A stretch of DNA of 32,000 bases, taken from Candidatus Methylomirabilis limnetica (GTDB lineage: Bacteria; Methylomirabilota; Methylomirabilia; Methylomirabilales; Methylomirabilaceae). The stretch covers positions 6,669 through 38,668 of the forward strand of contig NZ_NVQC01000038.1 of NCBI RefSeq assembly GCF_003044035.1. Direction: 5' to 3'. Below are positions 8,271 to 24,088 of the stretch, in pieces. Position 1 is the first letter of the stretch. Every line of letters begins with the position of its first letter. A program made the translations under genes and the position numbers. The notes below the pieces were generated by a model. It was given only the letters and a program-made list of their open reading frames with translations. It did not search any database and had not been told where the DNA came from.

Positions 8271-8344
8271 CGCGGGATCCCAGGAAGGCGAGATACCTCA
8301 GTATCGCCGAGAGCACTTCAATCCGCGGATATGTTTTCATCGGA

Positions 8345-8983
8345 TTACGCCTCGATCAGGATGTCATAATACGGGACGTTAAGAAGATAGCTCTCATCTG
8401 CACGTTGAGCGAGAAACATTTCCCTTCGGGCCAGCCAGTTCAGAGAGCAAACGAATAGCCCCGGTAGACAATTAGCCATACGGATGAAAATAGTGGATAG
8501 CTTGGAATTTTGCCTACTGCGAATTCGCCGTACAGTTTTGACACGAAAGTCTTTCGACAGCTCGGGAATATAATCGGACTCCATGCTCGCTCGGGCCACG
8601 CTTCCTGAGGAACGACCAGAGAGGCTGGCCTGTTCGATGAGAATCTGACGTCCGCTTAGCACGAGAACGCGACGTATTTCGGACACAATTCGTGGGAAAT
8701 CTGAACCTCCCACGAGGTATTGCATGACCCAACATGATAGGCACGTATCAAAAACCACATCCGGACCAGCGAGAACTAGATCCAAGGAGTCGGCACACCT
8801 TACCGAAGGATGCTCGGCCCAGAGCTGCTGTCGCCGCTCTGGGCTCGATTCACAAATCCAGGAAAGGACGCCAAGGTCGGCGAAGTTTCGAACCAGGTTT
8901 TTTCCCTAGTAGCCAGCGCCGATACAGGCGATCACGGCCTTAGGCGGTGATTTCTCGCGTCCATCGCAGTTATCATTGGGCAT
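8345..8983 (-). pseudogene. Rossmann-fold, class I SAM-methyltransferase-like gene interrupted by an in-frame TAG
   Basis: Hand translation from ATG 8983 gives MPNDNCDGREKSPPKAVIACIGAGY*GKNLVRNFADLGVLSWICESSPERRQQLWAEHPSVRCADSLDLVLAGPDVVFDTCLSCWVMQYLVGGSDFPRIVSEIRRVLVLSGRQILIEQ... The TAG (8908-8906) falls inside the Gly-rich nucleotide-binding loop. The downstream part is track ORF 8345..8785. The first ~60 aa could also be read as a Gfo/Idh/MocA-type N-terminus. Confidence 0.5.
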
Positions 8984-8990
8984 CCAGTGT

Positions 8991-9350
8991 CTCCCCTCAC
9001 CCCCCCATCCTCACCTTCCCCCTCGTAGGGGGGAAGGGACAAATCCACCCACAGCTTCGACCTCTTTCCCCCTTAAAGGGAGATCACACTTTAGACCTCC
9101 TCCCCCCTTGAACGGGCCCACAACTGAATAAAGGCTCATGGTATGAAACTGTGGGTTACAGTTTCGACCTCCTCTTACCCCCCCATCCTCACCTTCCCCC
9201 TCGTGGGGGGGAAGGGAAGTGCGGTGGTACCTTCACCCGGTGGGGGGAAGGGATAAATCACCCACAGTTTCGACCTCTTTCCCCCTTGAAGGGAGATCAC
9301 ACTTTAAGCCTCCTCCCCCCTTGAGGGGGAGGATTGAGGTGGGGGGGAGA
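8991..9350. repeat. mosaic GC-rich multi-hairpin repeat cluster, two tandem composite copies
   Basis: 'ccccccatcctcaccttccccctcgtRggggggaaggga' occurs at 9001 and 9179. 'cacagYttcgacctctttcccccttRaagggagatcacactttaRRcctcctccccccttga' occurs at 9050 and 9263. The second copy also carries 'agtgcggtggtaccttcacccggtggggggaaggga' and 'gggggaggattgaggtgggggg'. Confidence 0.85.
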
Positions 9351-9383
9351 GCCGAATAAAATAACACCATACGATGCGTAACT

Positions 9384-12254
9384 TCAGGCGCTCCGCCTTA
9401 ATATCGCTGCAATCCTGGCCTGAAGTTCATCCAATCGGAACGGCTTTGTGATGTAATCATCTGCGCCGGCCCTGAGTCCGGTGACGACATCGTCTTTGTC
9501 GCCGTATCCTGTCATCATGATAATTGGGATGTTTCGATACTGGGGGTGGTCACGCAACGCCTGGCACACCTGGAGACCATTTTGGTCCGGCAGCTTTACA
9601 TCGAGAAGGATGAGATGGGGGCGCTGACGCTGGATTCGATCGAATCCGTCGCGGGCGCTACAGGCTGTTGCCACCTCATACGTACCGTTCACGGCCTCTT
9701 TCACCAAATCGCAGAGGGTCTTATCATCATCAATGACCAGGATGCGATACTTTTCACCAACCTCAGGAACCGAGAATGCAGACTCCTTGAGAGAAGGAGC
9801 ATAACTCGGGATCATGTCATGTATCTGTCGCAGAAGGGCGGGCACGTCGCCAACCATCGCCAGAGTTTCGAGGCGGTTAAGACGCTCCTCCATATCCCCG
9901 AAGGAGGCCTGCGGCTGCCGCACCGCGAAGATCCGGTCATATTCTGACACCAGAACTTCGTCGTCGTCCCAAAGGCTCTCGTGCAACTTCTCCCCTGGGC
10001 GCAATCCTGTGTATCGCTTTGTGACTCGCGATGGGTTCAGACCTGACGTCAGGGCGAGGTTATTCACCAGTTCGTCGATCTTGACCGGCTCTCCCATGTT
10101 CAGGATAAACACGTCCTCCTCGCAGTCCATCGTACTGCTCTGCAACACCAGTCCAACCGCTTCGGGTATCGTCATGAAGAAGCGTGTCATCTGTGGGTCT
10201 GTGATAGTAATGGGCTCTCCATTCTCGATCTGCTTCTGGAAGAGGGGCACCACACTTCCGGCGCTGCCGAGCACGTTACCAAATCTCACGACAAAGAAAT
10301 GAGGCGTCCCGCTTAACCCGTGTGACTGTCGGAGGACTCGATTGAGGGCTATAATGTACATCTCGCTCACCTTCTTCGTCGCCCCCATCAAGCTTTTCGG
10401 CCTCACGGCCTTATCGGTTGAGATGAAGACGAAGGTGTTTACGTCAAACTTCTGCGCAACTTCAGCCAGACGTTTCGTCCCGATGATATTGTTGAGAACC
10501 GCCTCTCCCGGATGGTCCTCCAGGATCGGCACGTGTTTATAGGCTGCGGCGTGGAACACAACCTGCGGCCTCGTGCGTTCGAATATCTCCGACATGCGTG
10601 GAATATGCTTGATGTCCGCAAGGGCTGCCGTTACGTTGGCCTCGGGGGAATGTTGTCGGATCTCCAATGAGATGTGGTGCAGGGCATTCTCGGCGCGTTC
10701 GACCATGATGAGCGATTCAACACCACAACTGATAAGTTGCCGACATAGTTCTGAACCAATGGATCCCCCCGCTCCGGTCACCATGACCCGCTTTCCGCGG
10801 AAAAACTCGGTAATCGCCTCTCGGTTGATGGCCACCGGTTCTCGCCCAAGCAATTCATCAACGTTCACCTTTCGAAGATACCGCAGGTTTCCATCCCCCC
10901 GCACGAGCTGGGTAAAAGACGGGAGGGTCTTGAATTCCAGACCAGCCCCGGCGCAGATGCTGCCGATGCGGCGTAGCCCGTTACCAGTCGCGGTCGAAAT
11001 CGCGATGATCGCTTCCTGAATCGCATACGTCTTCGCGATGTCAGGAAGCCTGTCGATTGTGCCGAGCACAGGCCGGCCATGAATGGTCGCCCCCTGCTTT
11101 TTGGGATCGTCGTCGACGAATCCGATGAGTCCGTAACCCGACAACGGATTGCCAAGGATTTCCCTTGCGATCAATTCACCGGTTTCCCCTGCCCCGATAA
11201 TGACAACCTTGCGGCTATTGGTTGGGGATGTGTCACTACTCAGGTGTTTAGGCTGAAGGCTGAAGCTCGACCGCACGAGGAGCCGCATCCCTCCTGTAAG
11301 CAGGACCGTCAAAGGCATGGTCAATATGAGAATCGATCTCGGATAGCCATGCCATCCCATAAGGACCACGGCGAAACCGTGCAGACCTCCTCCTATAGCT
11401 GATGCCTTGATAATCTGCCACAGGTCCTCTACGCCTGCAAACTTCCAGATGCTCCTATGGGTCCGGAGCGTTACGAAGGATACGAGATAGGCCGCGCAGA
11501 CAATGGGAAGGCCGTAAAGGAGATGCTGCGTCTCCTTCTCAGGAAGTGCCCAATCAAACCTGACCATGAAAGCCGATAGGTTTGCCGCAATAACAGCGAG
11601 GCAGTCCAGCGTCAACCTCGCATATTTTTGTATGTGGGGGGGCGGATTCAGTGTTGTGAGGATCCTTTCCCCTATCGCTATAGGCGTTCGGATTACGTAC
11701 CAGAGATCACCGGCAAGCGAGCGCGTACGGACGTACTCTCGGTCGCTCTCGAGTTTCTCCTGCATGAACTGCTTGGTATAGTGTTCATAGACATCAACTC
11801 CAGGAGGAAACGTATCCGACTCACCTACCCAGGCAAGTTGCGTTGGACCAGTGATTCCCGGTTTGACTTCCAAGATCGCGCGTTGTTCTGGCGTGTACTG
11901 TTCAACTATTGCAGGAATCTCCGGACGAGGCCCGACAAGGCTCATGTCGCCTTTCAGGACATTGATGATCTGGGGGAGCTCGTCGATCTTCAGCAGCCTG
12001 AGCAATCTGCCCACCCGAGTGACACGCGGGTCGGCGTTCCCTGTCAGATGAGGGCCAACTTGGTCAGCATCGACAACCATAGATCTGAATTTCAGAATCC
12101 TGAAGGTCTTCCCGCGCCTCCCGACGCGCTCCTGAGCATAGAAGACTAAACCTGGGGAATCCAGCTTAATGGCGATGGCCACGAGGAGAAAGATGGGCAA
12201 CAGCAGCACAAGCGCCACCAGGGAGAATATGAGATCTATCGCCCGCTTCAGCAT
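9384..12254 (-). CDS. tri-domain fusion: PglC-type bacterial sugar (phosphoglycosyl) transferase + CapD/PglF-like NAD-dependent 4,6-dehydratase + CheY-like receiver
   Basis: 956-aa ORF with ATG 12254 preceded by GGAGAAGG.
- aa 1-200: LKRAIDLIFSLVALVLLLP...RILKFRSM...KIDELPQIINVLKGDMSLVGPRPE.
- aa ~205-330: hydrophobic CapD-type membrane segments.
- Rossmann motifs: 'VVIIGAGETG' and 'VMVTGAGGSIGSEL'.
- Dehydratase core: 'VFHAAAYKHVP', 'FVFISTDKAV'.
- aa 836-956: receiver with 'ILVIDDD', 'LILLDVKLPD', 'IIMMTG', 'ITKPF'. Confidence 0.9.
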   Translation of the reverse strand: MLKRAIDLIFSLVALVLLLPIFLLVAIAIKLDSPGLVFYAQERVGRRGKTFRILKFRSMVVDADQVGPHLTGNADPRVTRVGRLLRLLKIDELPQIINVLKGDMSLVGPRPEIPAIVEQYTPEQRAILEVKPGITGPTQLAWVGESDTFPPGVDVYEHYTKQFMQEKLESDREYVRTRSLAGDLWYVIRTPIAIGERILTTLNPPPHIQKYARLTLDCLAVIAANLSAFMVRFDWALPEKETQHLLYGLPIVCAAYLVSFVTLRTHRSIWKFAGVEDLWQIIKASAIGGGLHGFAVVLMGWHGYPRSILILTMPLTVLLTGGMRLLVRSSFSLQPKHLSSDTSPTNSRKVVIIGAGETGELIAREILGNPLSGYGLIGFVDDDPKKQGATIHGRPVLGTIDRLPDIAKTYAIQEAIIAISTATGNGLRRIGSICAGAGLEFKTLPSFTQLVRGDGNLRYLRKVNVDELLGREPVAINREAITEFFRGKRVMVTGAGGSIGSELCRQLISCGVESLIMVERAENALHHISLEIRQHSPEANVTAALADIKHIPRMSEIFERTRPQVVFHAAAYKHVPILEDHPGEAVLNNIIGTKRLAEVAQKFDVNTFVFISTDKAVRPKSLMGATKKVSEMYIIALNRVLRQSHGLSGTPHFFVVRFGNVLGSAGSVVPLFQKQIENGEPITITDPQMTRFFMTIPEAVGLVLQSSTMDCEEDVFILNMGEPVKIDELVNNLALTSGLNPSRVTKRYTGLRPGEKLHESLWDDDEVLVSEYDRIFAVRQPQASFGDMEERLNRLETLAMVGDVPALLRQIHDMIPSYAPSLKESAFSVPEVGEKYRILVIDDDKTLCDLVKEAVNGTYEVATACSARDGFDRIQRQRPHLILLDVKLPDQNGLQVCQALRDHPQYRNIPIIMMTGYGDKDDVVTGLRAGADDYITKPFRLDELQARIAAILRRSA

Positions 12255-12274
12255 CGCCTTCTCCGGCTCAACCC

Positions 12275-12555
12275 TTTACCCCCCATCCTCACCTTCCCCC
12301 TCAAGGGGGGAAGGGATTTCTGAGGGATGGAGAGCCCACTGCCGCCTCCGCCTTCCGCTAACAAGAGTGGCCCGCAAGGGGGGAAGGGACACCCATTTCG
12401 GAATCCTCCCCCCTTGTGGGGGGGGTAATGCCTCTACTCGCAGGGGAGAACTCCAGACCTCCCGACAGACGGGCGGGGATAAACCCCGCCCCTACACCCC
12501 CCATCCTATCCTTCCCCCGCCAGGGGGGAAGGGAAGTGCGGCGGGACCTGTCCGG
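12275..12555. repeat. mosaic GC-rich multi-hairpin repeat cluster
   Basis: Contains 'ccccccatcctcaccttccccctcaaggggggaaggga', 'cctccccccttgtgggggggg', 'gggcggggataaaccccgcccctacaccccccatcctatccttcccccgccaggggggaagggaagtgcggcggg'. These are the same modules as at 9.0, 15.2, 15.6, 16.1, 17.0 and 18.9 kb. Confidence 0.85.
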
Positions 12556-12640
12556 ATAATGACAAAGCCCACCTGCCGCAATGGAGCGTAGCGGAATAGC
12601 GATCAGGTGCAGCACCTTGTTAGGCAAAGATTTCATCAAC

Positions 12641-12841
12641 TTATACGGTCTCAAATTGCAAACTCTTTAGCATTTGCACTGGGACGCGCTTGCTTAAGCC
12701 CAGTATCTCAACCCCGACTACGTTGTCATTTGCATCATAGTCGAGAATTACGCCTGGTTTAACCTCCTCGGACTCGACAATGGCTGACTCATCGAGCCGA
12801 AAATATAACGCGTCATTCTTGTGATCCACCTTTAATCTCAT
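12641..12841 (-). CDS. DUF2283-family small protein (putative antitoxin partner of DUF4258)
   Basis: 66 aa: MRLKVDHKNDALYFRLDES...GVILDYDANDNVVGVEILGLS, the typical DUF2283 pattern. Its start overlaps the upstream stop as ATGA (12838-12841). Confidence 0.8.
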   Translation of the reverse strand: MRLKVDHKNDALYFRLDESAIVESEEVKPGVILDYDANDNVVGVEILGLSKRVPVQMLKSLQFETV

Positions 12842-13086
12842 TGCGGCCTCCTTACTCTACGGTCAAAGAAGACAGTGACGATTCTCTGAGGCCGGGCATC
12901 CGGATTCACAACAACCCGTAAATATCGTCCACCGTGCTGCTCAATAGATCGAATATAGTGAAGCATTCCATCATCCTTTGGTTGCTTCTTCTCGGGATCT
13001 TCTAAAGCCAACTCTACCCAAGCTTCTTGAATGTTCCGCTCCCTTAGCATATCATAAGCATGTTCAGAGAACTCATACTCGATCAT
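12838..13086 (-). CDS. DUF4258-family small protein (putative toxin)
   Basis: 82 aa: EFSEHAYDMLRERNIQEAWVELALEDP...GRYLRVVVNPDARPQRIVTVFFDRR. This is the DUF4258 pattern (H-A-x-x-M-L-x-x-R-x-I ... LRVVV ... IVTV). Confidence 0.8.
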   Translation of the reverse strand: MIEYEFSEHAYDMLRERNIQEAWVELALEDPEKKQPKDDGMLHYIRSIEQHGGRYLRVVVNPDARPQRIVTVFFDRRVRRPQ

Positions 13087-13114
13087 GCCTGCCTATGTGC
13101 CGCAGGCGCCGGAC

Positions 13115-13178
13115 CTCCATCCCCCCCACCCAGAGGGTACCCGGGAGAAGGGATAGGAGAGGGAGAGCCTTCCCTCCA
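13115..13178. repeat. degenerate member of the GC-rich repeat family
   Basis: 'catcccccccacccagagggtacccgggagaagggataggagagggagagccttccctcc' resembles the 18700-18750 copy ('cccccccacccgtcccctccccctcggaggggggagggtaagagggagag'). Confidence 0.4.
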
Positions 13179-13277
13179 TCGGCACCGTTCGGTCACATCG
13201 TGAGGCGTGAGGAGGAGCCCCTTATGCCTTCCGATTGAAGAACCACGTAACTTGCTCATCCTCGCTTTCACTCTCCG

Positions 13278-13589
13278 CTATGTCGTAAGGCGGCTAGACC
13301 TGTGATTGAGCCATTTCTTGAAAGAGGCCTGACTTTCGCCTGAGGGTTTCCCAGCCAATAGACCCTCAACGCTCACATCCTCATCGATGTCTTCCCAGTG
13401 GATACCCTGCCCCTCACCAATCAGCCTCCAGTGACTTCGTTCTTGTTGGGTCGCATGCACAAGGCGAGGGAACCACGCAAGTGGGACTGAGATCGTCCGC
13501 CCGTCGCTCAAATCCACGCTCAGCGTATCGTCGGTTACCGTAATGCTTTCAGCATTTGGAACCTCAATCTCAACTGCCGAAGTAGTCAT
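13278..13589 (-). CDS. DUF2442-family small protein
   Basis: MTTSAVEIEVPNAESITVTDDTLSVDLSDGRTISVPLAWFPRLVHATQQERSHWRLIGEGQGIHWEDIDEDVSVEGLL is the typical DUF2442 pattern. ATG 13589 is preferred over 13622 because GGAGG lies 8 nt upstream. It overlaps the upstream gene by 20 nt. Confidence 0.8.
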   Translation of the reverse strand: MTTSAVEIEVPNAESITVTDDTLSVDLSDGRTISVPLAWFPRLVHATQQERSHWRLIGEGQGIHWEDIDEDVSVEGLLAGKPSGESQASFKKWLNHRSSRLTT

Positions 13590-13806
13590 TCCACGCCTCC
13601 ATGAATCTTGGGTCATGCTCATTCACGAGTTGCTGAATTCGACCGATTTCTGCTCGAGTAAATCTACCACTCTTTTGTAGCCGTATCGGATCCAGCCAGA
13701 ACTTTGCAATTTTGCTGTTCCGTTCCACATGAATGTGCGGCGGTTCATCTCGATCGCCGGCGTAGAAGAAGAACCGATACGGGCCAACTTTCAGTACCGT
13801 CGGCAT
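13570..13806 (-). CDS. DUF4160-family small protein
   Basis: 78 aa: MPTVLKVGPYRFFFYAGDRDEPPHIHVERNSKIAKFWLDP is the typical DUF4160 N-terminus. The ATG lies 5 nt after the DegT stop. Confidence 0.8.
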   Translation of the reverse strand: MPTVLKVGPYRFFFYAGDRDEPPHIHVERNSKIAKFWLDPIRLQKSGRFTRAEIGRIQQLVNEHDPRFMEAWNDYFGS

Positions 13807-13811
13807 GAGCC

Positions 13812-15005
13812 CTATCTCCGAAGGGTGTGGAGTGTGTCGTGTACGGACTCGATCACTCGCCCTATGTCGGCATTCGTCATCGCCGGATAGATTGGGAGCG
13901 AGACCGCACGCTCGAAGATATGTTCGGCGTTCGGAAACGCTCCCTGATGGTAGCCAAATGACCGCTGATAGACGGGGTGCAGATGAAGGGGAATGAAGTG
14001 AACGGAGGTCCCAATGCCCTTCTCTCCAAGGGAGCGAATGACCTCGTCTCGCCCACTAGCCAAGGCGGGAAGATTGAGTTGTAAGATGTACAGGTGCCAG
14101 GCGTGTGTGCCGTAGTCGGCCTCTTGAGGGATCACGCACGTCTCCAGACCTGAGAAGCTCTCGCTATACATCCGAGCAATCTCTCGCCGTCGCTTGTAAA
14201 AGTCATCCGACCTTCTGAGTTGCTGGATTCCCAACGCCGCAGCCAGATCGGTCAGGTTGTATTTAAATCCGAAATCGAGGATCTCGTAATACCAGTGTCC
14301 CTTATCGGAGTACCGGTTCCAGGCATCACCACTCAGACCATGGAGGCTCATCCGCTTCATTCTGGCGGCATGGTCGTCGCGCATCGTCGCGATCATCCCG
14401 CCCTCTCCAGTGGTTATCGGCTTGGTGGCATAAAAGCTGAAGGCCGTGAGATCACCAATAGCCCCGATCATCTTTCCTTTGTAGGTGGCATGAAGGGCAT
14501 GAGCGGCATCCTCAATGACGTGAAGGTGATGCTCCCTGGCAAGTTCCATGATCGGATCCATGTCACATGCCTGCCCGGCGATGTGAACGGGGATGATGGC
14601 CTTGGTCTTCGGCGTGATCAGCGGTGCTACCGTAGCCGCATCAATATTGAAGGTGTCAGGCCGGCAGTCGGCCAGGACAGGACGAGCCCCGAGGTAAGTC
14701 ACCACTTCTCCGGTGGCGGCAAACGTATAGGTGGGGAGGATCACCTCGTCGCCTGCCCCGACGCCAACTGCATCGAGAGCCAGATGGAGCGCGGCGGTGC
14801 AGGAGTTGACGGCAATGGCATGCTTGGCGCCAACGTAGGCGGCAAAGGCCTCCTCGAATTGTCTGACCTTCGGACCAGTCGTCAGCCAGCCGGAGCGAAG
14901 CACTTCGACGACTTCGGCGATCTCTTCTTCGCCAATCGAGGGGAGATGGAAGGGAATCTTTTGTTGTTGTCCGTTCTGCATGTTGTTCACAGTAACAAGC
15001 GGCAT
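13812..15005 (-). CDS. DegT/DnrJ/EryC1/StrS-family PLP-dependent sugar aminotransferase (PglE-like)
   Basis: 397-aa ORF. 'LPSIGEEEIAEVVEVLRSGWLTTGPKVRQFEEAFAAYVGAKHAIAVNSCTAALHLAL', 'HVIEDAAHA' and the Lys motif 'FSFYATKPITTGEGGMI' are family hallmarks. Confidence 0.9.
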   Translation of the reverse strand: MPLVTVNNMQNGQQQKIPFHLPSIGEEEIAEVVEVLRSGWLTTGPKVRQFEEAFAAYVGAKHAIAVNSCTAALHLALDAVGVGAGDEVILPTYTFAATGEVVTYLGARPVLADCRPDTFNIDAATVAPLITPKTKAIIPVHIAGQACDMDPIMELAREHHLHVIEDAAHALHATYKGKMIGAIGDLTAFSFYATKPITTGEGGMIATMRDDHAARMKRMSLHGLSGDAWNRYSDKGHWYYEILDFGFKYNLTDLAAALGIQQLRRSDDFYKRRREIARMYSESFSGLETCVIPQEADYGTHAWHLYILQLNLPALASGRDEVIRSLGEKGIGTSVHFIPLHLHPVYQRSFGYHQGAFPNAEHIFERAVSLPIYPAMTNADIGRVIESVHDTLHTLRR

Positions 15006-15045
15006 TTGCTATCTCTTGCCATCCATCACGCTCTTCTTCTTCTTC

Positions 15046-15188
15046 CTAGTGTAGTATATCCAACGATTCTTTTCAATCCGTTCGCCCTGAGCCTGTCGAA
15101 GGGTGAAGTATTTCAATTGGTTCCGTTCATGGGTTCGACAAGCTCACCACGAACGGATTGTAAAGGTATTTGTGAGGCACTACACTAG
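15046..15188. repeat. 143-bp imperfect palindromic (inverted-duplication) element, MITE-like
   Basis: Perfect 10-bp termini: 'ctagtgtagt' (15046-15055) / 'actacactag' (15179-15188). Perfect 11-bp inner pair: 'caatccgttcg' (15074-15084) / 'cgaacggattg' (15150-15160). A 12/13 pair: 'tgagcctgtcgaa' (15088-15100) / 'ttcgacaagctca' (15134-15146). Confidence 0.55.
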
Positions 15189-15207
15189 AGTCTTGGGCTC
15201 ATGGCAC

Positions 15208-15317
15208 GTGGGATGGGCGGGGATAAACCCCGCCCCTACATCCCCCCCATCCTCACCTTCCCCCGCCAGGGGAGAAGGGAAGTGCGGCGGTACCTTCACC
15301 CGGTGGGGGGAGGGAAG
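15208..15317. repeat. canonical ~110-bp unit of the GC-rich multi-hairpin repeat
   Basis: 'gtgggatgggcggggataaaccccgcccctacatcccccccatcctcaccttcccccgccaggggagaagggaagtgcggcggtaccttcacccggtggggggaggga'. Confidence 0.9.
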
Positions 15318-15325
15318 TATGATTG

Positions 15326-15544
15326 TTAGCCCTTGATAACTTGCTCCTCTATCGGGACCTTGCTTATGAGGAGCTCTTTCATGTCTACTTTCTTGCTAGC
15401 ATTATCAATGTCGATACCCACGATATTCCCATCAACATCATAATCGAGGATCACTCCTTCCGATATCTCTTTGCTGTCAGCGCTGACCTTGCCCGACAAA
15501 TCTATGTAGAGAGAATCAGTGTCTGGATAGTAGTTCAACCTCAT
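15326..15544 (-). CDS. DUF2283-family small protein, orphan (no DUF4258 partner adjacent)
   Basis: 72 aa: MRLNYYPDTDSLYIDLSGKVSADSKEISEGVILDYDVDGNIVGIDIDNAS. Paralog of 12641..12841. Confidence 0.75.
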   Translation of the reverse strand: MRLNYYPDTDSLYIDLSGKVSADSKEISEGVILDYDVDGNIVGIDIDNASKKVDMKELLISKVPIEEQVIKG

Positions 15545-15566
15545 GGCTTATACCCCCGATGTCGCA

Positions 15567-15699
15567 GGGGAAGGCTTTACGCTCTCCCGTGGGATGGGCG
15601 GGGATAAACCCCGCCCCTACATCCCCTCATCCTGTCCTTCCCCCACAAGTAGGGAAGGGAGGTGCGGTGGTACCTTCACCCGGGGAGGGGAAGGGAAAG
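15567..15699. repeat. GC-rich multi-hairpin repeat unit
   Basis: 'ggggaaggctttacgctctcccgtgggatgggcggggataaaccccgcccctacatcccctcatcctgtccttcccccacaagtagggaagggaggtgcggtggtaccttcacccggggaggggaaggga'. Confidence 0.9.
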
Positions 15700-15756
15700 A
15701 ATCGCTTGCCCCGCCGTGCTCATTCCAGCTTGCGAGAGGAGTCCAGATACGAGCGG

Positions 15757-16056
15757 TTAGGCTCTCTTTGGCTTCGCTGTATGCTTTTTGGGGAGTAGTG
15801 GGATTAAACACCGCAAAGCCCTATTTACAGACTCTGAGTTTGGGAAATATGCTCGAGTATCCGGCTCTAGAACCACTATGCCCTCTTTAGGCATCACGTC
15901 CTTAACAACAGTTGTACCATCTGCCTTACGGATAGTCATCGTATACCCAGCTTGCATAGTCCTATAATGTTTACCACGCACTCCACACCTAAAATCATAT
16001 TCGGTACGCATATCGTTGTCTTCCACCTGTACCATTTTAGTCGCCACCTTCTTCAT
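15757..16056 (-). CDS. small conserved protein, antitoxin-like, orphan
   Basis: 99 aa, with ATG 16056. 'EYDFRCGVRGKHY' and 'VVLEPDTRAYFPNSESVNRALRCLIPLL' match a motif pair (EYDF..G.RGK.Y ... V.LDPDV...FPdSeSVNeALR) that I recall from small proteins next to toxin genes. I cannot name the family with certainty. Confidence 0.5.
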   Translation of the reverse strand: MKKVATKMVQVEDNDMRTEYDFRCGVRGKHYRTMQAGYTMTIRKADGTTVVKDVMPKEGIVVLEPDTRAYFPNSESVNRALRCLIPLLPKKHTAKPKRA

Positions 16057-16071
16057 AAAGTTCCCGCTCCG

Positions 16072-16221
16072 ATGAGGTGGAGGGTATACTGGGAAGGCTT
16101 ACGCTCTCCCGTGGGATGGGCGGGGATAAACCCCGCCCCCACATCCCCCCCATCCTCACCTTCCCCCGCCACGGGGGAAGGGAAGCGCGGTGGTACCTTC
16201 ACCAGGTGGTGGGAGAGAGGG
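16072..16221. repeat. GC-rich multi-hairpin repeat unit
   Basis: 'gaggtggagggtatactgggaaggcttacgctctcccgtgggatgggcggggataaaccccgcccccacatcccccccatcctcaccttcccccgccacgggggaagggaagcgcggtggtaccttcaccaggtggtggg'. Confidence 0.9.
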
Positions 16222-16294
16222 TCCGATGGCGTGTAGTGAGCGAAACAGACCGCAAACACACTGTTATCCGAAGTTGCCCGGCTTGTTCCTACGA

Positions 16295-16540
16295 TCAGGC
16301 AAAGGCTTTTGCCGGCATCTCAATGTAGCGATCTGGTTCTTCTACCTTACCATGAATGGCAAAGAACTGCCGCTCGATTTCCTTGAGAACAACCGCATCG
16401 TAGTAGACCATGCCACAATTCAGGCATACTTCAACAGGGGTATTCGGCACCAGCAAGTATTTCCCCTCGTGGCTATAGAGATACTCAATCCTTCGTTCCT
16501 CATGGCGGTCACTGCCGCAGAAATTACACTCTATTGCCAT
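16295..16540 (-). CDS. YgiT/MqsA-type zinc-finger small protein (putative antitoxin)
   Basis: MAIECNFCGSDRHEERRIEYLYSHEGKYLLVPNTPVEVCLNCGMVYYDAVVLKEIE has two CxxC pairs with YgiT-type spacing. ATG 16540 overlaps the upstream TAG stop by 10 nt (aTGGCAATAG). Confidence 0.75.
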   Translation of the reverse strand: MAIECNFCGSDRHEERRIEYLYSHEGKYLLVPNTPVEVCLNCGMVYYDAVVLKEIERQFFAIHGKVEEPDRYIEMPAKAFA

Positions 16541-16848
16541 CCTCGTCTTTCTCCTCGCGTCCAAGGGTCAATGAACTTCGGCGGGCGTGGAATGTATACG
16601 GTGATAAGTACTACCTTTTCCCCACGCCAGCCGCATACGACGTGAATAGGTATCTTCCCAGCAAAACCTACGACCAGACAACTCTCACCGCGTCCAATAT
16701 CAGGATACTGCTCAAGGATCTTACTATTCAATAGAGCCTCTTCTACTTGAGCGAAGGTTAATCCGTCCGCTCTCCGCTCAATCTCGGCATGATGGCTGTA
16801 AACATACCTGTTGTCGCGAACCCTCGCCTTTATCTCTTCAATGTCCAT
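16531..16848 (-). CDS. DUF4258-family small protein (putative toxin), second paralog
   Basis: 105 aa: YVYSHHAEIERRADGLTFAQVEEALLNSKILEQYPDIGRGESCLVVGFAGKIPIHVVCGWRGEKVVLITVYIP. Confidence 0.8.
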   Translation of the reverse strand: MDIEEIKARVRDNRYVYSHHAEIERRADGLTFAQVEEALLNSKILEQYPDIGRGESCLVVGFAGKIPIHVVCGWRGEKVVLITVYIPRPPKFIDPWTRGERRGWQ

Positions 16849-16900
16849 CTCTGCTCATAACGATACCCACTACTACTGACGGCTCCCACGTCATGCGTCG

Positions 16901-17192
16901 CTCCTCCTCCCCCCATCCCAGCCTTCCGCCGCCAAGGGGGAAGGGAAGTGCGGTGGTGCCTTCACCTGGTGGGGGGAAGGGATGCCCATGGTGGATTTTT
17001 CCCCCTCACGCCTGACGCCCATCTCCCTTCCGAGGGGAGGATTCCCTCTCCGACCTCCTCCCCCCTTGTGGGGGAGGATTGAGGTGGGGGGTATACTGGG
17101 AAGGCTTACGCTCTCCCGTGGGATGGGCGGGGATAAACCCCGCCCCTACATCCCCCCCATCCTCACCTTCCCCCGCCAGAGGGGAAGGGATC
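16901..17192. repeat. mosaic GC-rich multi-hairpin repeat cluster (about two and a half units)
   Basis: Contains 'ccccccatcccagccttccgccgccaagggggaagggaagtgcggtggtgccttcacctggtggggggaaggga', 'cctcctccccccttgtgggggaggattgaggtggggggtatactgggaaggcttacgctctcccgtgggatgggcggggataaaccccgcccctacatcccccccatcctcaccttcccccgccagaggggaaggga'. Confidence 0.9.
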
Positions 17193-17202
17193 GGCATCAC
17201 AG

Positions 17203-18483
17203 TCAGTGGATCTTCTTGAGGGACACCTGGTCGATCCAGGCGGTTCCGCCGATGAGATTATCGAGTTTCTGGCTGGTCTCTCGCCGGATCTTGATGACAA
17301 TGGCCTGAGATCGCGGAGAGGTTTCAAACGGTACGCGCACCTCGGACCACGGGTGGTCGCCGATGTAGCTCTCGCTCGTGGCATGGCGTCTGCCATCGAG
17401 AAAATCTATTACCTCCAGATAGGGGCCGTTTGAGGTCGTGATGCCTGTGGTCTTGATGGAACCGCTCAGTAGGTAGCGAGTCCCCGGCATCACCGGAACC
17501 ACCTGAGAGGCAGCGGTCAGATCTAGATTTCGAGTGCCATCAAAGGCGATCTTGAGCGATCGCGTCCCCTCCGCGGAGCTCGACGCACCAACCCCAATCT
17601 CTACCCCAGCGCTCCGTCCAACCCGCCAATCGAATCCGGCCCCCCACGTCTCGTCTCGCTCGAACCCGCCATTCCACATTAGATTGTCAAGGTCACCGCC
17701 TCCCCTGCCAATCCCCCGTAATCGCAACAGCAGGTTCCAGGCAGACGTAGCCTCTGACAGGTCCTTGTGTTCAAGCATGAAATCGACATACGCTGAAGCG
17801 AGGCGGGGATCCACGCTGACAGCAGGGAGAGCGGTAAGCCGCTGCCACACCACCCTTCCGTTCTCAGCCTCCCCCTGCCTGATCAGGTAGTCCAGGTAGT
17901 CCGACAAGACCCCCGGCTCGGCGGGTAAGGTCGTGTCGATGAAATCGGCGGGCTGCATGAGGGTGTGGATAAGGGTGAAATAGGTCTGGCGCTGGCTTGG
18001 CTCGGTCATCACCAGATGTCGCAGGTTGGCGATGGCGGCCTCGTAGTCCTCAAGCTGGATCTGAAACAGTGCGGCCTCCCAACGCAGCCTCGCATTGCTA
18101 GGATTGAACCACAACGCAAGCCTGAGGGCGGGCTTGGCCTCCTGGACCTGACCTAACCACCAGTGGGTCCTCGCCACATCGAACCACGTGCGGCTGGAAA
18201 GGGGATTCTCCCAAAGGGCCAGTCGATAGTGACGCAACGCCTCCTGATAGTCCTGGAAGCTCACGCTGTATTGGCGAATCTTTCCCAGGTGCTGATGCTG
18301 GTACTGGGGGTGTTCTGGATGCGACCGCCAGGCACGGAGCAGTTCAGGGTCGTGGGGAAGAGCGGGGATCGCGAAGCTGGCCGCCCAGGGACGGACGATC
18401 ATCCAGGAGGCCAAGGTGGTAAGGCAGGCGAGCAGTAGGAGGGAAGCGGCCTTGCTTGACGACGTCCTGAACTCGAGGACCAT
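17203..18483 (-). CDS. membrane-anchored TPR-repeat protein with a C-terminal carbohydrate-binding-module-like (CBM4/9-type) domain
   Basis: 426 aa with an N-terminal hydrophobic anchor (AASLLLLACLTTLASWMIV). TPR-like helices: YQEALRHYRLALWENPLSSRTWFDVARTHWWLGQVQEAKPALRLALWFNPSNARLRWEAALFQIQLEDYEAAI. The C-terminus, 'WNGGFE...W...GTRSLKI...QVVPVMPGTRYLLSGSIKT', resembles a CBM_4_9 fold. Confidence 0.65.
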   Translation of the reverse strand: MVLEFRTSSSKAASLLLLACLTTLASWMIVRPWAASFAIPALPHDPELLRAWRSHPEHPQYQHQHLGKIRQYSVSFQDYQEALRHYRLALWENPLSSRTWFDVARTHWWLGQVQEAKPALRLALWFNPSNARLRWEAALFQIQLEDYEAAIANLRHLVMTEPSQRQTYFTLIHTLMQPADFIDTTLPAEPGVLSDYLDYLIRQGEAENGRVVWQRLTALPAVSVDPRLASAYVDFMLEHKDLSEATSAWNLLLRLRGIGRGGGDLDNLMWNGGFERDETWGAGFDWRVGRSAGVEIGVGASSSAEGTRSLKIAFDGTRNLDLTAASQVVPVMPGTRYLLSGSIKTTGITTSNGPYLEVIDFLDGRRHATSESYIGDHPWSEVRVPFETSPRSQAIVIKIRRETSQKLDNLIGGTAWIDQVSLKKIH

Positions 18484-18548
18484 GCGATCTCATCTCCCAT
18501 CCTAAAACTAGCGCGGGAAAACTATTCCATAGTCATTTTGTTGAGGGT

Positions 18549-18645
18549 CGATACCCCGCGGCTTGCCGCGAGTTCGTCATACCGGCGGAAGCCGGTATCC
18601 AGAGGGCCGACTGGATTCCGTGTCAAGCACGGAATGACGGGCCAG
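18549..18645. repeat. ~95-bp two-hairpin repeat (second family), copy A
   Basis: 'cgataccccgcggcttgccgcgagttcgtcataccggcggaagccggtatccagagggccgactggattccgtgtcaagcacggaatgacgggccag' is near-identical to 28897-28989. Perfect hairpins: ataccggc-ggaa-gccggtat and attccgtg-tcaagc-acggaat. The head 'cgataccccgcRgcttgccgcg' recurs at 18655-18677. Confidence 0.85.
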
Positions 18646-18699
18646 AACAGAAGACGATACCCCGCAGCTTGCCGCGGGGCAGTTCATTGGTTTTAAGGT

Positions 18700-18775
18700 C
18701 CCCCCCACCCGTCCCCTCCCCCTCGGAGGGGGGAGGGTAAGAGGGAGAGTGCGGCCTTTCATGCCCATTGGCGAG
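18700..18775. repeat. GC-rich repeat, variant unit with the 'gggagagtgcggcctttcatgcccattggcg' tail
   Basis: 'cccccccacccgtcccctccccctcggaggggggagggtaagagggagagtgcggcctttcatgcccattggcgag'. The tail matches 18930-18962 at 28 of 33 positions. Confidence 0.7.
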
Positions 18776-18825
18776 TCAAGGCTCATGAGGTACTGCCCCG
18801 AAAGTCCCCCTCAACTACCTGATCC

Positions 18826-18960
18826 GTAGGGGCGGGGTTTATCCCCGCCCGGTAAGCGGGAGGGCATAAAGCCCTCCCCTACATCCCCCCATCCTATCCT
18901 TCCCCCGCAAGGGGGGAAGGGATATCGGCGGGAGAGTCCGGACTTTCATGCTCATGGGCG
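18826..18960. repeat. GC-rich multi-hairpin repeat, rearranged unit overlapping the 3' end of the Wzc-like gene
   Basis: Inverted copy of the ATAAA-loop hairpin ('gtaggggcggggtttatccccgccc', 18826-18850). A covariant direct copy follows ('gggagggcataaagccctcccctacatccccccatcctatccttcccccgcaaggggggaaggga', 18858-18921). Then the tail 'gggagagtccggactttcatgctcatgggcg'. Confidence 0.85.
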
Positions 18961-21293
18961 TGGGGGGCTCCTGGGGTATTGCTTCGATCATGGTGCCCCC
19001 TCGCGACGATACCGTGCCGTTCGGATTTCCGATGATAATAGTCGTGATAGTCCTGATAGTACGAATACCCGTGGCTATGCAGATCTATGTTGTTCAGGAC
19101 GACGCCCAAGATTTTCGCGTTGACTGCGTTGAGCGTTCTCACCGCTCTTTGAGCGGCATCTCGAACCGTTTTGCCTGCACGGATAACAAACACGGTGCCC
19201 TCGGCGAATGTGGATAGCAGGACGCTATCGGTAAACCCAAGCACCGGCGGCGCATCGATAATCACATACTTGAACTGCTGACAGAGCAGTTCCAAGGCAT
19301 CCCTCATCCGCTCGGAGCCAAGTAACTCTGCCGGGTTCAGTGGGGATTGTCCCGCCGGCAGTAGAGAGAGGTTGGAGGTTGCCGTTGGTTTGATGACGGC
19401 GCTAAGCTCTGCGTCTCCCACAAGGAAGTTCGACAGCCCTGGCGTTCGATCCTGCCCCAGGATCCGGTGACAATCGGGATAGCGCATATCCGCATCGATG
19501 AGCAGAACGTCACCGCCAAGTTGCGACAGCGCGACAGAGAGATTGATCGACACGCCTGTTTTACCGTCGCCCGGTTCCGCACTGGTCACGAGGAGCAGCT
19601 TAGGAGGGTTCTCCGGGAGAGAGAAGAGGAGCGAGGTCCGGATGTTCCGGATGGCCTCACCAACCAACGAGGACTGATCCTGGAGCATGACCAGTTCAAA
19701 CGACTTCGCGTCCTGGCCGTTGTTGGTCGTTCCTTTCAGCCGCCTCCTTCGTTCGACGGAGGCTAATGCCGGCACGGCCCCCAGAATCGGCAATGCGAAC
19801 GTCGATTCTACCTCTTCGATCTTATTGACAGTGTTGTCAAGGTAGTCGGAGAAGAACGCCAGGCCGATCCCCAGGCCGAGACCGAGGACGATCCCGAGCG
19901 TCAGGTTGAGCAGTTTCTTAGGGCGATCGGGCCAGAGCGGAATTTTCGCCAGGTCAGTGATCATAATATTCGTGGAATCGAGTCCCGCAGAGACAGCCGT
20001 CTCTTTCATGCGCTGCAACAGGCCGGAATACAGTTCGCGGTTGATGTCAACCTCTCGCTTCAGGATGTTGTACTGAATGGAATCCTCGTTGGTCTTGAGG
20101 GTCACCGTTTTCTGCTTATCCACCGCTGATTGGAGCAGATGTTCCGATTTCAGGCCTGCCTCATAACTCGACCGGAGGCCATCGACAACCCTTTGGACCT
20201 CACCATCAAGCTTTATCTTCACTTCGTCGATATTACTCTTCAGCGCCACCATCCTGGGATAGTCCGACAGGAACGTCTCAGACAGCTTCCTGTATTCGGC
20301 CTGAAGGCGGAAATACTCTGTCTTCAAGCTAGAGATCAGCGGATTTTCCAACACCGATGGGATCGACTGAAAATCCTGTCCCTGAGTCTGCCGATGCAGC
20401 GCCTCCTTCGCCAGCCGCTCGCTGCGCGCTTTCATCAGGGCATCAGTGAGCAGTGAGAGCTGCTTGGTGGTCTGTTCCTGTTTTTCATCTAGCACGAGGT
20501 ATTGCTTCTGCTTGGCAAATCGCTGAAGCAGTTCATCAGAGCTCTCGAGCTTGATCCTCACCTCTTGAATCTGTTTCGCCAGGAAGTCGCCGGCATATTT
20601 CATCGCGCCCAGCCTCTGCTCGATGCTCTGTTCGATAAAGTTCTCTGCCATCGCGTTGGCAATTTGGGCGGACAGTTCCGGCGAGGGGCTGAGGAAGGCG
20701 ATCTTCACCAGGCGGGTATTCTTGACGGGTTCAATCTCCAGCTTTTTCAGGAAACTCTGCACCACGGGCGATTCGGTGATTGACGCCTCGCCGGAAGCCT
20801 GCTGCGTAGACGGCTGAGGGCGTATGAGGTCCACAAGATTGGTGAGCCAAGTCCATGTTGGAGAGGCCGGACCTTGCATTCCAGAGCCCAAGAATTCCGG
20901 GTTTGCGTCGAGGTTGAAGCGTTTGACGACCCGCTCCGCAAGCGAATAGCTTGTCAGCAGCTTGTATTGCGTCTGATAATAATCATCGGTCTCTTTGTTG
21001 GCAGACGGCGAGACGTCATCGAACTTCAGGATCTTGAGTTCTGCCCTGTCGATCTTGATGGTGGCGGTGGCCTTATACACCGGCCGCTGAACAAACGTCG
21101 CAGTGGCAACGGTAACCACCGTGACAAGAAAACAGGTGAGGACGATCCAGCGATGCTTGAGGAGCACCTGCCAGTAATCCCTGAGATGCGGATCTTTCTT
21201 TTGCTCGGGAAACGCCTGGACAGGCCATAGCTGAGGCTTCGCCAAGCCTCCGCTGCCCCCCTTCACCTTTACGAGCGCATTATCGGGGTCCAT
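18894..21293 (-). CDS. wzc: Wzc/GumC-type polysaccharide co-polymerase fused to a BY-kinase (tyrosine autokinase) domain
   Basis: 799 aa. N-terminal TM plus Wzz-like region (HLRDYWQVLLKHRWIVLTCFLVTVVTV...YKATATIKIDR). Long coiled periplasmic part. Second TM (LNLTLGIVLGLGLGIGLAFF). P-loop 'TSAEPGDGKTGVSINLS', 'VLLIDADMRYP', 'YVIIDAPPVL'. Tyr cluster 'HGYSYYQDYHDYYH'. Confidence 0.9.
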   Translation of the reverse strand: MDPDNALVKVKGGSGGLAKPQLWPVQAFPEQKKDPHLRDYWQVLLKHRWIVLTCFLVTVVTVATATFVQRPVYKATATIKIDRAELKILKFDDVSPSANKETDDYYQTQYKLLTSYSLAERVVKRFNLDANPEFLGSGMQGPASPTWTWLTNLVDLIRPQPSTQQASGEASITESPVVQSFLKKLEIEPVKNTRLVKIAFLSPSPELSAQIANAMAENFIEQSIEQRLGAMKYAGDFLAKQIQEVRIKLESSDELLQRFAKQKQYLVLDEKQEQTTKQLSLLTDALMKARSERLAKEALHRQTQGQDFQSIPSVLENPLISSLKTEYFRLQAEYRKLSETFLSDYPRMVALKSNIDEVKIKLDGEVQRVVDGLRSSYEAGLKSEHLLQSAVDKQKTVTLKTNEDSIQYNILKREVDINRELYSGLLQRMKETAVSAGLDSTNIMITDLAKIPLWPDRPKKLLNLTLGIVLGLGLGIGLAFFSDYLDNTVNKIEEVESTFALPILGAVPALASVERRRRLKGTTNNGQDAKSFELVMLQDQSSLVGEAIRNIRTSLLFSLPENPPKLLLVTSAEPGDGKTGVSINLSVALSQLGGDVLLIDADMRYPDCHRILGQDRTPGLSNFLVGDAELSAVIKPTATSNLSLLPAGQSPLNPAELLGSERMRDALELLCQQFKYVIIDAPPVLGFTDSVLLSTFAEGTVFVIRAGKTVRDAAQRAVRTLNAVNAKILGVVLNNIDLHSHGYSYYQDYHDYYHRKSERHGIVARGHHDRSNTPGAPHAHEHESPDSPADIPSPLAGEG

Positions 21294-21312: not shown

Positions 21313-21387
21313 AGAAAATCTCCCCTCGCCCCTCTTTTCCAAAGAGGGGTAAATCCTCCCTTTGGCAAAGGGAGGTGAGGAGGGATT
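21313..21387. repeat. 75-bp two-hairpin element (third family), copy A, in the wza-wzc intergenic gap
   Basis: 'agaaaatctcccctcgcccctcttttccaaagaggggtaaatcctccctttggcaaagggaggtgaggagggatt'. It matches 22471-22545 at 71 of 75 positions. Hairpins: cccctcttt-tcc-aaagagggg and cctcccttt-ggc-aaagggagg. Confidence 0.9.
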
Positions 21388-21392
21388 GTTCA

Positions 21393-22484: not shown

Positions 22485-22545
22485 CGCCCCTCTTTTCCAA
22501 AGAGAGGTACATCCTCCCTTTGGCAAAGGGAGGTCAGGAGGGATT
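22471..22545. repeat. 75-bp two-hairpin element (third family), copy B, overlapping the wza start
   Basis: 'agaaaatctcccatcgcccctcttttccaaagagaggtacatcctccctttggcaaagggaggtcaggagggatt'. Confidence 0.9.
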
Positions 22546-22727
22546 CTTCGATACGGTAAAGTCACTATTTTTAGATAGTTAATCGCTGTTTCCCTATCCG
22601 ATCCTATCCTCTGTTTTAACATCTCTCGGTCTTTCGTCTTCTCCTGTTTTCCACAGTACACAGGAGGGCATCGATCGCGTAAATCCCCTCTCCCATCAGA
22701 ACAAGACGGAGCGGTGTAGGCTATTGC

Positions 22728-24047: not shown

Positions 24048-24088
24048 TACCCCCTCTCTACGCCATCGGACGGTTATTGAGAAATAGA

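Follow-up and report, generated by a model that had tools for sequence, protein, structure and literature searches.

Within a 32,000-nucleotide stretch of Candidatus Methylomirabilis limnetica DNA (contig NZ_NVQC01000038.1; hereafter the window), a series of small toxin-antitoxin-type genes and hairpin repeats lies among the core genes of an exopolysaccharide (EPS) export and biosynthesis operon that occupies 9.4-25.4 kb, with every gene on the minus strand. Comparison with related loci shows that toxin-antitoxin-type cassettes were recently gained and lost here independently, and that toxins later eroded. We consider it rather likely that this part of the Methylomirabilis EPS operon is a gene-turnover hotspot, with mosaic hairpin repeats as its probable homology or recombination sites; a causal role of the repeats in forming the junctions is plausible but unproven. 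An original prediction, made from the sequence of the window, had proposed such a hotspot with repeated uptake of addiction-type modules, bounded by repeats that mark or cause the junctions, and the gene families and repeats it listed were all present where it placed them (Pfam, repeat scans).

Five cassettes, all encoded on the minus strand, separate the core genes. Three lie between the gene for a 426-aa TPR-repeat protein (17203-18483) and that for a DegT/PglE-type aminotransferase (DegT, 13812-15005; Pfam, 454.6 bits). These are a 105-aa DUF4258 toxin-type gene of the RelE/ParE BECR superfamily (DUF4258a, 16531-16848; PF14076, 57.1 bits) overlapped by a YokU/YgiT/MqsA-type zinc-finger antitoxin-type gene (16295-16564; YgiT_finger TIGR03831, 41.4 bits against a cut-off of 20.2), a 99-aa orphan BrnA-type antitoxin analogue without a Pfam family (15757-16056), and an orphan 72-aa DUF2283 gene (DUF2283a, 15326-15544). 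Two more lie between DegT and the next core gene, a 956-aa fusion of Bac_transf (PglC-like), Polysacc_synt_2 (PglF/CapD-like 4,6-dehydratase) and Response_reg domains (9384-12254; Pfam). One is a DUF4160-DUF2442 cassette (13278-13806) whose genes (13570-13806, 65.0 bits; 13278-13622, 81.7 bits) overlap at 13570-13622, and the other a DUF4258-DUF2283 cassette (12641-13086) whose genes, DUF4258b (12838-13086) and DUF2283b (12641-12841), overlap by 4 nt. The former starts 5 nt past the DegT stop with no repeat in between, which agrees with the prediction that DegT, DUF4160 and DUF2442 form one block. Family calls for the small genes are Pfam matches above the gathering cut-off. Between the genes, the DNA is a mosaic of hairpin modules of three types, here called A, B and C.

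Independent and recent turnover of the cassettes

We mapped ten related Methylomirabilis loci, all of them metagenome contigs, onto the window; DegT homologues at 84-92% identity carry the name Candidatus Methylomirabilis. The genes for the dehydratase and the aminotransferase had been expected to be normally adjacent, and DegT and the fusion gene do lie ~4 nt apart in L009 (TAGGTGATG), L213, L217, L220 and L214, the last arranged as L213, compared with 1.56 kb in the window. The same junction is a 105-nt spacer with a single B in L211 (Ca. M. lanthanidiphila-like) and a 408-nt spacer in L216, made up of half a B and ~300 nt of noncoding DNA with no credible open reading frame (ORF). It holds the DUF4160-DUF2442 cassette and a degenerate repeat in L209; B, the DUF4258-DUF2283 cassette and B-A in L226; and both cassettes in the window and L215. 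Arrangements upstream of DegT vary as well. The TPR and DegT genes overlap in L209 and L217 and are 45 nt apart in L211, while L213 has decayed A and B modules, a 66-nt DUF4258 remnant, the zinc-finger gene, a 70-nt repeat-free spacer and DUF2283, and the window has three cassettes with ABC units between them. The TPR gene is absent from the clade of L216, L226 and L009, in which its place is taken by one B+A unit (L216, L226) or by one B at the 3' end of Wzz, with 53 nt from there to DegT (L009); the B at the Wzz 3' end of the window is also present in all three.

Cassette presence is patchy across the DegT neighbour-joining tree, (L220, ((L213, L211), L217), (L209, ((window, L215), (L216, (L226, L009))))). 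On this tree, both the TPR gene and the tight junction between DegT and the fusion gene are ancestral, and the TPR gene was most simply lost once, in a single clade.

The cassettes have diverged far less than the genes around them. DUF4160 and DUF2442 are 99.2% and 98.3% identical in nucleotide sequence to their counterparts in L209, against 88.7% in DegT, 81% in TPR and 85% in the fusion gene, and the step from ~88% to 99% coincides exactly with the DegT stop and DUF4160 start. Compared with L213, identity is 95.9% for the zinc-finger gene and 94.5% for DUF2283a (flanks, 73-80%), and compared with L226 it is 96.6% for the DUF4258b block (flanks, 87-91%). Synonymous divergence (dS) follows the same pattern, at 0.0 and 0.026 for the DUF4160-DUF2442 cassette against 0.455-0.60 for the flanks in L209 (DegT, 0.455), 0.13 for the zinc-finger gene and 0.18 for DUF2283a against 0.82-0.92 in L213, and 0.059 and 0.073 for DUF4258b-DUF2283b against 0.33 for DegT in L226. 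Judged by divergence and composition, the cassettes are young and foreign, and were exchanged between lineages recently, long after the core genes diverged, since their dS lies 5 to >17 times below that of the flanking core genes and their GC content is lower (44-53%, against 55-60% in the adjacent Wzz, TPR, DegT and fusion genes). The predicted hotspot with repeated cassette uptake is thus upheld by the low cassette dS and by the different combinations held by L209, L226, L213 and the window. A dN/dS of 0-0.16 in the five cassette genes with enough substitutions (0.16 in DUF2283a) shows that these are real genes under constraint.

Erosion has affected toxins, leaving antitoxin genes still under purifying selection. 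In L213, DUF4258a is reduced to its last ~66 nt, beside decayed repeats. In the window, a BrnT toxin gene survives as its final ~13 codons (SERELYEEGGD + stop; 16037-16084, minus strand), which at 16043-16081 of the window match the BrnT of L225 with 77% identity over 13 aa (tblastn), overlap the start of the 99-aa gene and abut an ABC repeat; no intact BrnT gene (PF04365) lies upstream of the 99-aa gene. The 99-aa protein has 821 homologues and no Pfam (BrnA included) or NCBIfam match at E <= 0.01. The best 120 of these homologues are 77-85% identical, come from several phyla and have no Pfam family either, and in three independent contexts (L221, L222/L223 and L225) a BrnT gene lies directly upstream, overlapping the start of the homologue. 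The 99-aa gene is accordingly assigned as a predicted orphan BrnA-type antitoxin gene, as originally proposed for it as an orphan antitoxin, because BrnT partners its homologues and ~13 BrnT codons remain upstream. The best 120 homologues are also unusually conserved for a set that includes Actinomycetota, Planctomycetota, Syntrophales, Desulfobacteria and others.

The comparison yielded several further observations on individual loci. Downstream of ~13909, across both cassettes and into the fusion gene, L215 matches the window with 100% identity, and upstream of this point within DegT it is only ~94% identical (compared over 13909-15105), a contrast that places a recombination breakpoint within DegT, between strains that are very close. 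L213 has a 23S rRNA intervening-sequence protein gene (PF05635, at 6452-6898 of that locus) between Wzz and TPR, found in this lineage only, and the Wzz-TPR junction is therefore a third variable site. The record of L009 (DATMXF010000044.1) is titled 'Patescibacteria group bacterium', and its label or binning is probably wrong; the locus is ~89% identical in nucleotide sequence to the operon of the window and nests in the Methylomirabilis DegT clade. Samples of the window arrangement itself differ only by one indel at 18609 (L001) and two mismatches inside a palindromic element (L003; see below). A toxin frameshift polymorphism between samples was considered, as gene callers had skipped DUF4258b in some contigs, and rejected: the DNA is identical there.

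Mosaic hairpin repeats at the cassette junctions

Modules were mapped with hidden Markov model scans of the 32-kb window, to which all copy counts refer. There are 6 A, 11 B and 5 C copies, all within 9001-18923; A copies are confined to 12446-18873, and all B, all C and five of the six A copies share one orientation. Module A (~50 nt) ends GGGCGGGG-ATAAA-CCCCGCCC-CTAC and, on the gene strand, reads GTAG, GGGCGGGG, TTTAT, CCCCGCCC, that is, a GTAG tag followed by a hairpin with an 8-bp stem. Module B (~40 nt), found in every unit, consists of CCCCCCATCCTCA and then CCTTCCCCC-GCCA-GGGGGAAGG, with a 9-bp stem, and module C (~40 nt) also contains a hairpin. The 22-mer GGGCGGGGATAAACCCCGCCCC occurs six times against 0.00 expected, and the B hairpin pattern has 18 matches, overlapping and shifted ones counted, against 0.02 expected. 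Repeat units fold as two to three separate short hairpins and match no Rfam family.

Repeats are present at nearly every junction, and in this sense mark the junctions as predicted. All units are annotated on the plus strand. A composite repeat (B-A, spacer hairpin, B) at 12270-12570 lies directly upstream of the start of the fusion gene, and the degenerate repeat at 13095-13230, a fusion-like relic of C and B, is also found 3' of DUF2442 in L209. ABC units follow at 15190-15320 (repeat region 15170-15320), directly upstream of DegT, at 15547-15706 (15551-15700) and at 16069-16228 (16073-16225), and the composite repeat at 16880-17202 (16895-17200) reads, in gene orientation, B-A, a spacer with a further hairpin, and C-B. 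The same family (B, C-B, spacer hairpins) recurs downstream of the fusion gene at 8975-9335. At the Wzz/TPR junction (18826-18923), the Wzz/tyrosine-kinase gene runs into a B hairpin (18884-18923), which makes up its final codons and stop and is accompanied by a REPIN-like inverted doublet of GTAG hairpins (18826-18880). This B hairpin supplies the C-terminal SPLAGEG and stop codon of Wzz/kinase, whose last ~40 codons (18894-19021) have no counterpart in L209, L211 and L213, and which is 799 aa long in the window compared with 768-771 aa in these loci; the repeat has reshaped the 3' end of this coding region.

Beyond Methylomirabilis, the exact A-hairpin 26-mer GGGCGGGGATAAACCCCGCCCCTACA is found in >120 contigs from unrelated habitats (metagenome loci L089-L208), so that the GTAG-tagged A hairpin is common to very different organisms. 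In these contigs it usually stands alone or in inverted REPIN-type doublets 20-30 nt apart, and is never followed by B. A tblastn search with all nine small proteins against 830 kb of these A-hairpin-bearing loci, of limited sensitivity, returned nothing. Six viral contigs carry B-like hairpins singly; these were rejected as a clue to a mobile-element origin, the motif being generic. Module A fits the published class of GTAG-tagged repetitive extragenic palindromic (REP) sequences (PMC3733652), and B and C are lineage-enriched hairpin modules.

No terminator-like site or U-tract was found in any repeat, and 12000-19000 contains one such site against 4.9 expected; the repeats were consequently rejected as intrinsic terminators. 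As they lack terminator-like U-tracts, the array is probably co-transcribed with the operon. REP hairpins at gene 3' ends shape mRNA stability in E. coli, and by analogy the REP-like hairpins at gene 3' ends here could affect mRNA stability.

A different element, ~142 bp long, noncoding and palindromic, lies at 15047-15188. It resembles a miniature inverted-repeat transposable element (MITE), with terminal inverted repeats CTAGTGTAGT...ACTACACTAG, a predicted fold of -45.6 kcal/mol (z = -5.5) and an empty site in L216 and L226, which lack exactly the 15047-15188 segment. Within it, a minus-strand promoter-like match (TTGAAA, 17 nt, TACACT; 15076-15048) is directed towards DegT. Logan contigs are interrupted in the middle of the element, and in L003 its outer end is connected, with two mismatches, to an efflux operon, which implies a second MITE copy in the genome. 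The L003 contig, in which the region upstream of DegT continues into the efflux operon, reflects such a second copy or a chimeric contig, and was rejected as a real alternative arrangement.

Further repeat families occur elsewhere in the operon. A two-hairpin family (CCTCCCTTTGCCAAAGGGAGG, CCTCTCTTTGGAAAAGAGGGG) fills the spacers on both sides of Poly_export (21329-21391 and 22487-22552), and in L226 lies between the B module and the DUF4258 cassette (2690-2760 of that locus). At 18549-18679, two CGATACCCCGCGGCTTGCCGCG copies 106 nt apart belong to a larger element rich in hairpins; it lies in the Wzz-TPR spacer, which measures 411 nt in the window and 66-71 nt in L209 and L211.

Probable repeat-mediated recombination and alternative explanations

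We infer repeat-mediated recombination because B bounds the DUF4258b cassette, the B tail is duplicated, a one-repeat scar exists, and the repeats are oriented as direct repeats. B lies on both sides of the DUF4258b cassette in L226 as well as in the window, its tail being duplicated on both sides relative to L209, and cassette and repeats together are 95-97% identical between L226 and the window, against 87-91% for core genes. Homology with L213 likewise stops exactly at the start of a repeat, at 16226. The expectation of a single repeat at empty sites was borne out by L211 (one B), L216 and L226 (one B+A) and L009 (one B at the Wzz 3' end), and in no relative was the same gene order found without repeats. 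The B+A unit of L216 and L226 joins, on its left, the Wzz-end B of the window to, on its right, the DegT-proximal A flank of the window, that is, the A module and adjoining flank of the 15190-15320 unit; it fits exactly the fusion that would be expected from recombination between the two repeat copies of the window.

The course of events shown by these comparisons starts from an ancestral order of Wzz/kinase, TPR, DegT and fusion gene, in which junctions were tight or overlapping. At the TPR-DegT and DegT-fusion junctions, small type II toxin-antitoxin-like cassettes of low GC content (DUF4258 with zinc finger, BrnT with BrnA-like, DUF2283, DUF4160 with DUF2442, and DUF4258 with DUF2283) were inserted; they came and went independently, resulting in combinations that differ by lineage, and some toxins eroded, leaving constrained antitoxin genes. 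The repeats probably acted as short portable homology or recombination sites, in that a cassette would be gained together with a second repeat copy and the deletion of a block would leave a one-repeat scar. Transcription of the operon probably continues through the entire array.

Several observations weigh against such a role of the repeats. They are not specific to toxin-antitoxin cassettes, because the same family also lies next to core genes, at 8975-9335 beyond the fusion gene and at the 3' end of Wzz; the DegT/DUF4160 junction, a gap of 5 nt, has no repeat; the zinc-finger and DUF2283 cassettes of L213 stand side by side with none between them; and the hairpin motifs of A and B are found in single copy in numerous unrelated contigs, metagenomic as well as viral. 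Other hairpin-repeat families occupy the remaining spacers of the operon, as fits a general colonisation of intergenic DNA, and no recombination intermediate or enzyme was identified. The main rival, a possibility that we rate clearly below repeat-mediated turnover, takes the repeats as passengers, that is, REP- or MITE-like hairpins which fill dispensable intergenic DNA, including the spacers that cassettes create, and have no part in turnover. It would account for repeats next to core genes, for the repeat-free junctions in L213 and after DegT, for the at least two other repeat families and the MITE in other spacers, and for an A hairpin that is a generic GTAG REP-type motif in >120 unrelated contigs. 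It is less easily reconciled with a single B at the cassette-free sites of L211, L009, L216 and L226, with flanking repeats that share the 95-97% identity of their cassette rather than that of the core genes, with a scar in the TPR-less clade that is a one-repeat fusion of the two copies in the window, or with the common orientation of all B, all C and five of six A copies, as recombination between direct repeats needs.

A more specific mechanism, which we hold to be unlikely, is a hitherto unrecognised, site-specific cassette-capture system in which a recombinase encoded elsewhere, such as a serine resolvase, an Xer-like enzyme or a Y1 transposase of the REP-associated type (RAYT), would act on B (9-bp arms around a 4-5-nt centre) or on the GTAG hairpin; promoterless cassettes would be inserted and excised within operons, much as in integrons, through a site and an enzyme of its own. 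If true, it would explain why empty sites have one hairpin and cassettes two around them, and why the divergence step is so sharp, and it draws further on the alternation of cassettes with repeats that all point one way, on sharp cassette boundaries, and on the duplicated, Tn3 res-I-like palindromes that flank toxin-antitoxin operons in Photorhabdus (PMC13617665). Yet no recombinase is encoded in the 32 kb save a transposase of the Mutator family 10 kb away, no attC R''/R' core motifs occur, the units fold as separate short hairpins and not as a single bulged hairpin, their module content varies, one cassette has no site on one side, and no excised form was seen. Very improbable, in our judgement, is an ancestral array from which relatives differ by differential loss alone, with no horizontal exchange: deletions do occur, as the loss of TPR in one clade and the toxin remnants attest, but this account is already contradicted by cassette dS 5 to >17 times below that of the flanks, and also faces the ~4-nt DegT-fusion junction in four lineages, outgroup included, and the lower GC of the cassettes. 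Least probable of all is a misjoining of metagenome contigs at repeats. Logan contigs do break inside the MITE and at repeat edges, and L003 does join the MITE to an unrelated efflux operon; against this, two separate ENA assemblies reproduce the arrangement over 14.8 kb and 21.2 kb (100% and 99.995% identity), Logan contigs from several sequencing runs hold parts of it and span 15103-11236 unbroken, and L215, L226 and L209, from other studies, share sub-arrangements.

Predicted functions of the small genes

The small genes are predicted to form cassettes of the type II toxin-antitoxin kind; all except the 99-aa gene belong to Pfam families. DUF4160 and DUF2442 form the domain pair of DhiTA, which was identified in Dickeya dadantii (PMC8198452), in the same adjacent, overlapping layout. 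Similarity to DhiT itself is only remote (19.6 bits against the NCBIfam equivalog NF048015, cut-off 100), such that the DUF4160 protein shares the domain family and is not an orthologue. DUF4258 is a RelE/ParE BECR-fold toxin family for which a review gives target and activity as unknown, citing no study of the family, and fusions between DUF4258 and MqsA have been reported (PMC11980606). As in these fusions, DUF4258a is partnered by an MqsA-type zinc finger, here encoded by an overlapping gene. Residues 12-75 of the zinc-finger protein alone match the N-terminal half of MqsA and the C-terminal helix-turn-helix is absent, full-length MqsA models staying below their cut-offs (PF15731, 20.3 bits, cut-off 30; TIGR03830, 21.5 bits, cut-off 61.8). 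The putative pairing of DUF4258 with DUF2283 is based on gene neighbourhood. The two recur as a unit in L227, in an unrelated context, and have close homologues in bacteria and one archaeon. Sequence searches for relatives of solved structure with the 99-aa protein, DUF4258b and DUF2283b gave chance-level matches only.

Two roles offered by the original prediction found no support. The modules had been suggested to stabilise the locus, which is argued against because the neighbourhood is itself unstable, the TPR gene having been lost in one clade; a recent study also found no stabilisation of chromosomal neighbourhoods by toxin-antitoxin systems (PMC13617665). They had also been suggested to act in abortive infection, and PADLOC matched none of the small genes, with a weak match to the TPR protein only.

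The surrounding polysaccharide operon

Upstream of the hotspot, the operon comprises, all on the minus strand, two response regulators (24737-25390 and 24089-24577), a 439-aa ORF without an assigned function or Pfam family (22728-24047; in a comparison of 22421-24134, found in L209, L211 and L213, missing in L009), Poly_export (21393-22661), Wzz/tyrosine kinase (18894-21293) and TPR, an ancestral core gene like DegT and the fusion gene. Genes for FemAB-like, flippase and AsnB-like proteins lie downstream of the fusion gene. The fusion gene joins an initiating sugar transferase, a 4,6-dehydratase and a C-terminal receiver domain in a single protein, and this architecture suggests that the pathway is controlled by phosphorylation in its first steps; most, not all, Methylomirabilis relatives are listed with the receiver domain. 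The 1.1-kb stretch 3' of the fusion gene (8270-9384), which holds one 146-aa ORF without a Pfam match and repeats, is occupied in relatives by Wzy and glycosyltransferase genes. A Mutator-family (IS256-like) transposase ORF (1676-2764; 65.7% GC) within the polysaccharide gene cluster is a further sign of locus plasticity. Scans of the window for known RNA families (Rfam) and for tRNA genes as integration targets found none.

Comparison with known systems

The ~10 related genomes provide a compact natural series of empty, single-hairpin, either-cassette, both-cassette and eroded sites, together with a repeat-deletion scar, and their clear contrast in age between cassettes and core yields junction sequences with which hairpin repeats can be tested as recombination substrates. 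The locus also shows that a surface-polysaccharide operon can tolerate 5 kb of selfish cargo between genes whose enzymes act in consecutive steps, which bears on the transcription and processing of such operons. Even if the repeats are passengers, the locus is a well-documented toxin-antitoxin hotspot in a little-studied phylum.

Integron arrays and clusters of attC sites lacking integron integrases (CALINs) resemble the array in their short, mostly promoterless, co-oriented cassettes with a structured repeat after each, and toxin-antitoxin genes are typical cargo of chromosomal integrons. Here, however, core operon genes are interleaved with the cassettes. No pair of RYYYAAC...GTTRRRY cores bounding one imperfect hairpin of 55-140 nt was found on either strand of 8900-19000, and Pfam scans of the small genes and most large ORFs of the 32-kb window revealed no IntI, the sole mobility gene being the transposase at 1676-2764. 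Lacking core motifs and IntI, and with the wrong fold, an integron/attC reading is excluded.

REP sequences offer a closer parallel for the repeats. The GTAG-tagged class consists of 20-40-nt palindromes with a terminal GTAG, located outside genes (PMC3733652), and is treated here together with bacterial interspersed mosaic elements (BIMEs) and REP doublets (REPINs) (PMC3733652, PMC3116915). Module A has the GTAG, an 8-bp-stem hairpin and a position outside genes at gene 3' ends, the inverted A doublet at 18826-18880 corresponds to a REPIN, and the combination of modules into mosaics recalls BIMEs and pneumococcal BOX elements. Unlike REPs, modules B and C have no GTAG or CGTC tag, copies are concentrated in ~10 kb of the 32-kb window, and almost all share one orientation. 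In addition, no RAYT gene was seen within the window and related loci, a dedicated genome-wide search not being part of this comparison.

The closest precedent is found in the toxin-antitoxin spots of Photorhabdus with duplicated palindromes (Belot et al., Mol Biol Evol 2026, PMC13617665). There, a palindrome present once at the empty site is found in duplicate around toxin-antitoxin operons, and toxins erode; the movement of such systems in and out of chromosomes without a visible mobile element is described there as still poorly understood. In both cases, type II modules are gathered in small spots of high turnover, separate lineages have acquired the same site independently, the toxin is the first to decay while antitoxins remain, and the locus has no mobility gene. 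Two copies of a short palindrome likewise flank a cassette and one marks the empty site of a relative, here B on both sides of the DUF4258b cassette in the window and L226 and a single B in L211. The Photorhabdus palindrome, a single sequence of 24-28 bp, is Tn3 res-I-like, whereas the repeats here are three-module mosaics of 40-150 nt for which no Tn3 or res link is known. The spot described here also differs in its position among the enzyme genes of a single pathway, inside a co-oriented polysaccharide operon, in having five cassettes in series, and in its host, an uncultured NC10 methanotroph. Hotspots of this kind are thus already known, and what is new here is the in-operon, multi-cassette array, its mosaic REP-like repeats and the NC10 host.

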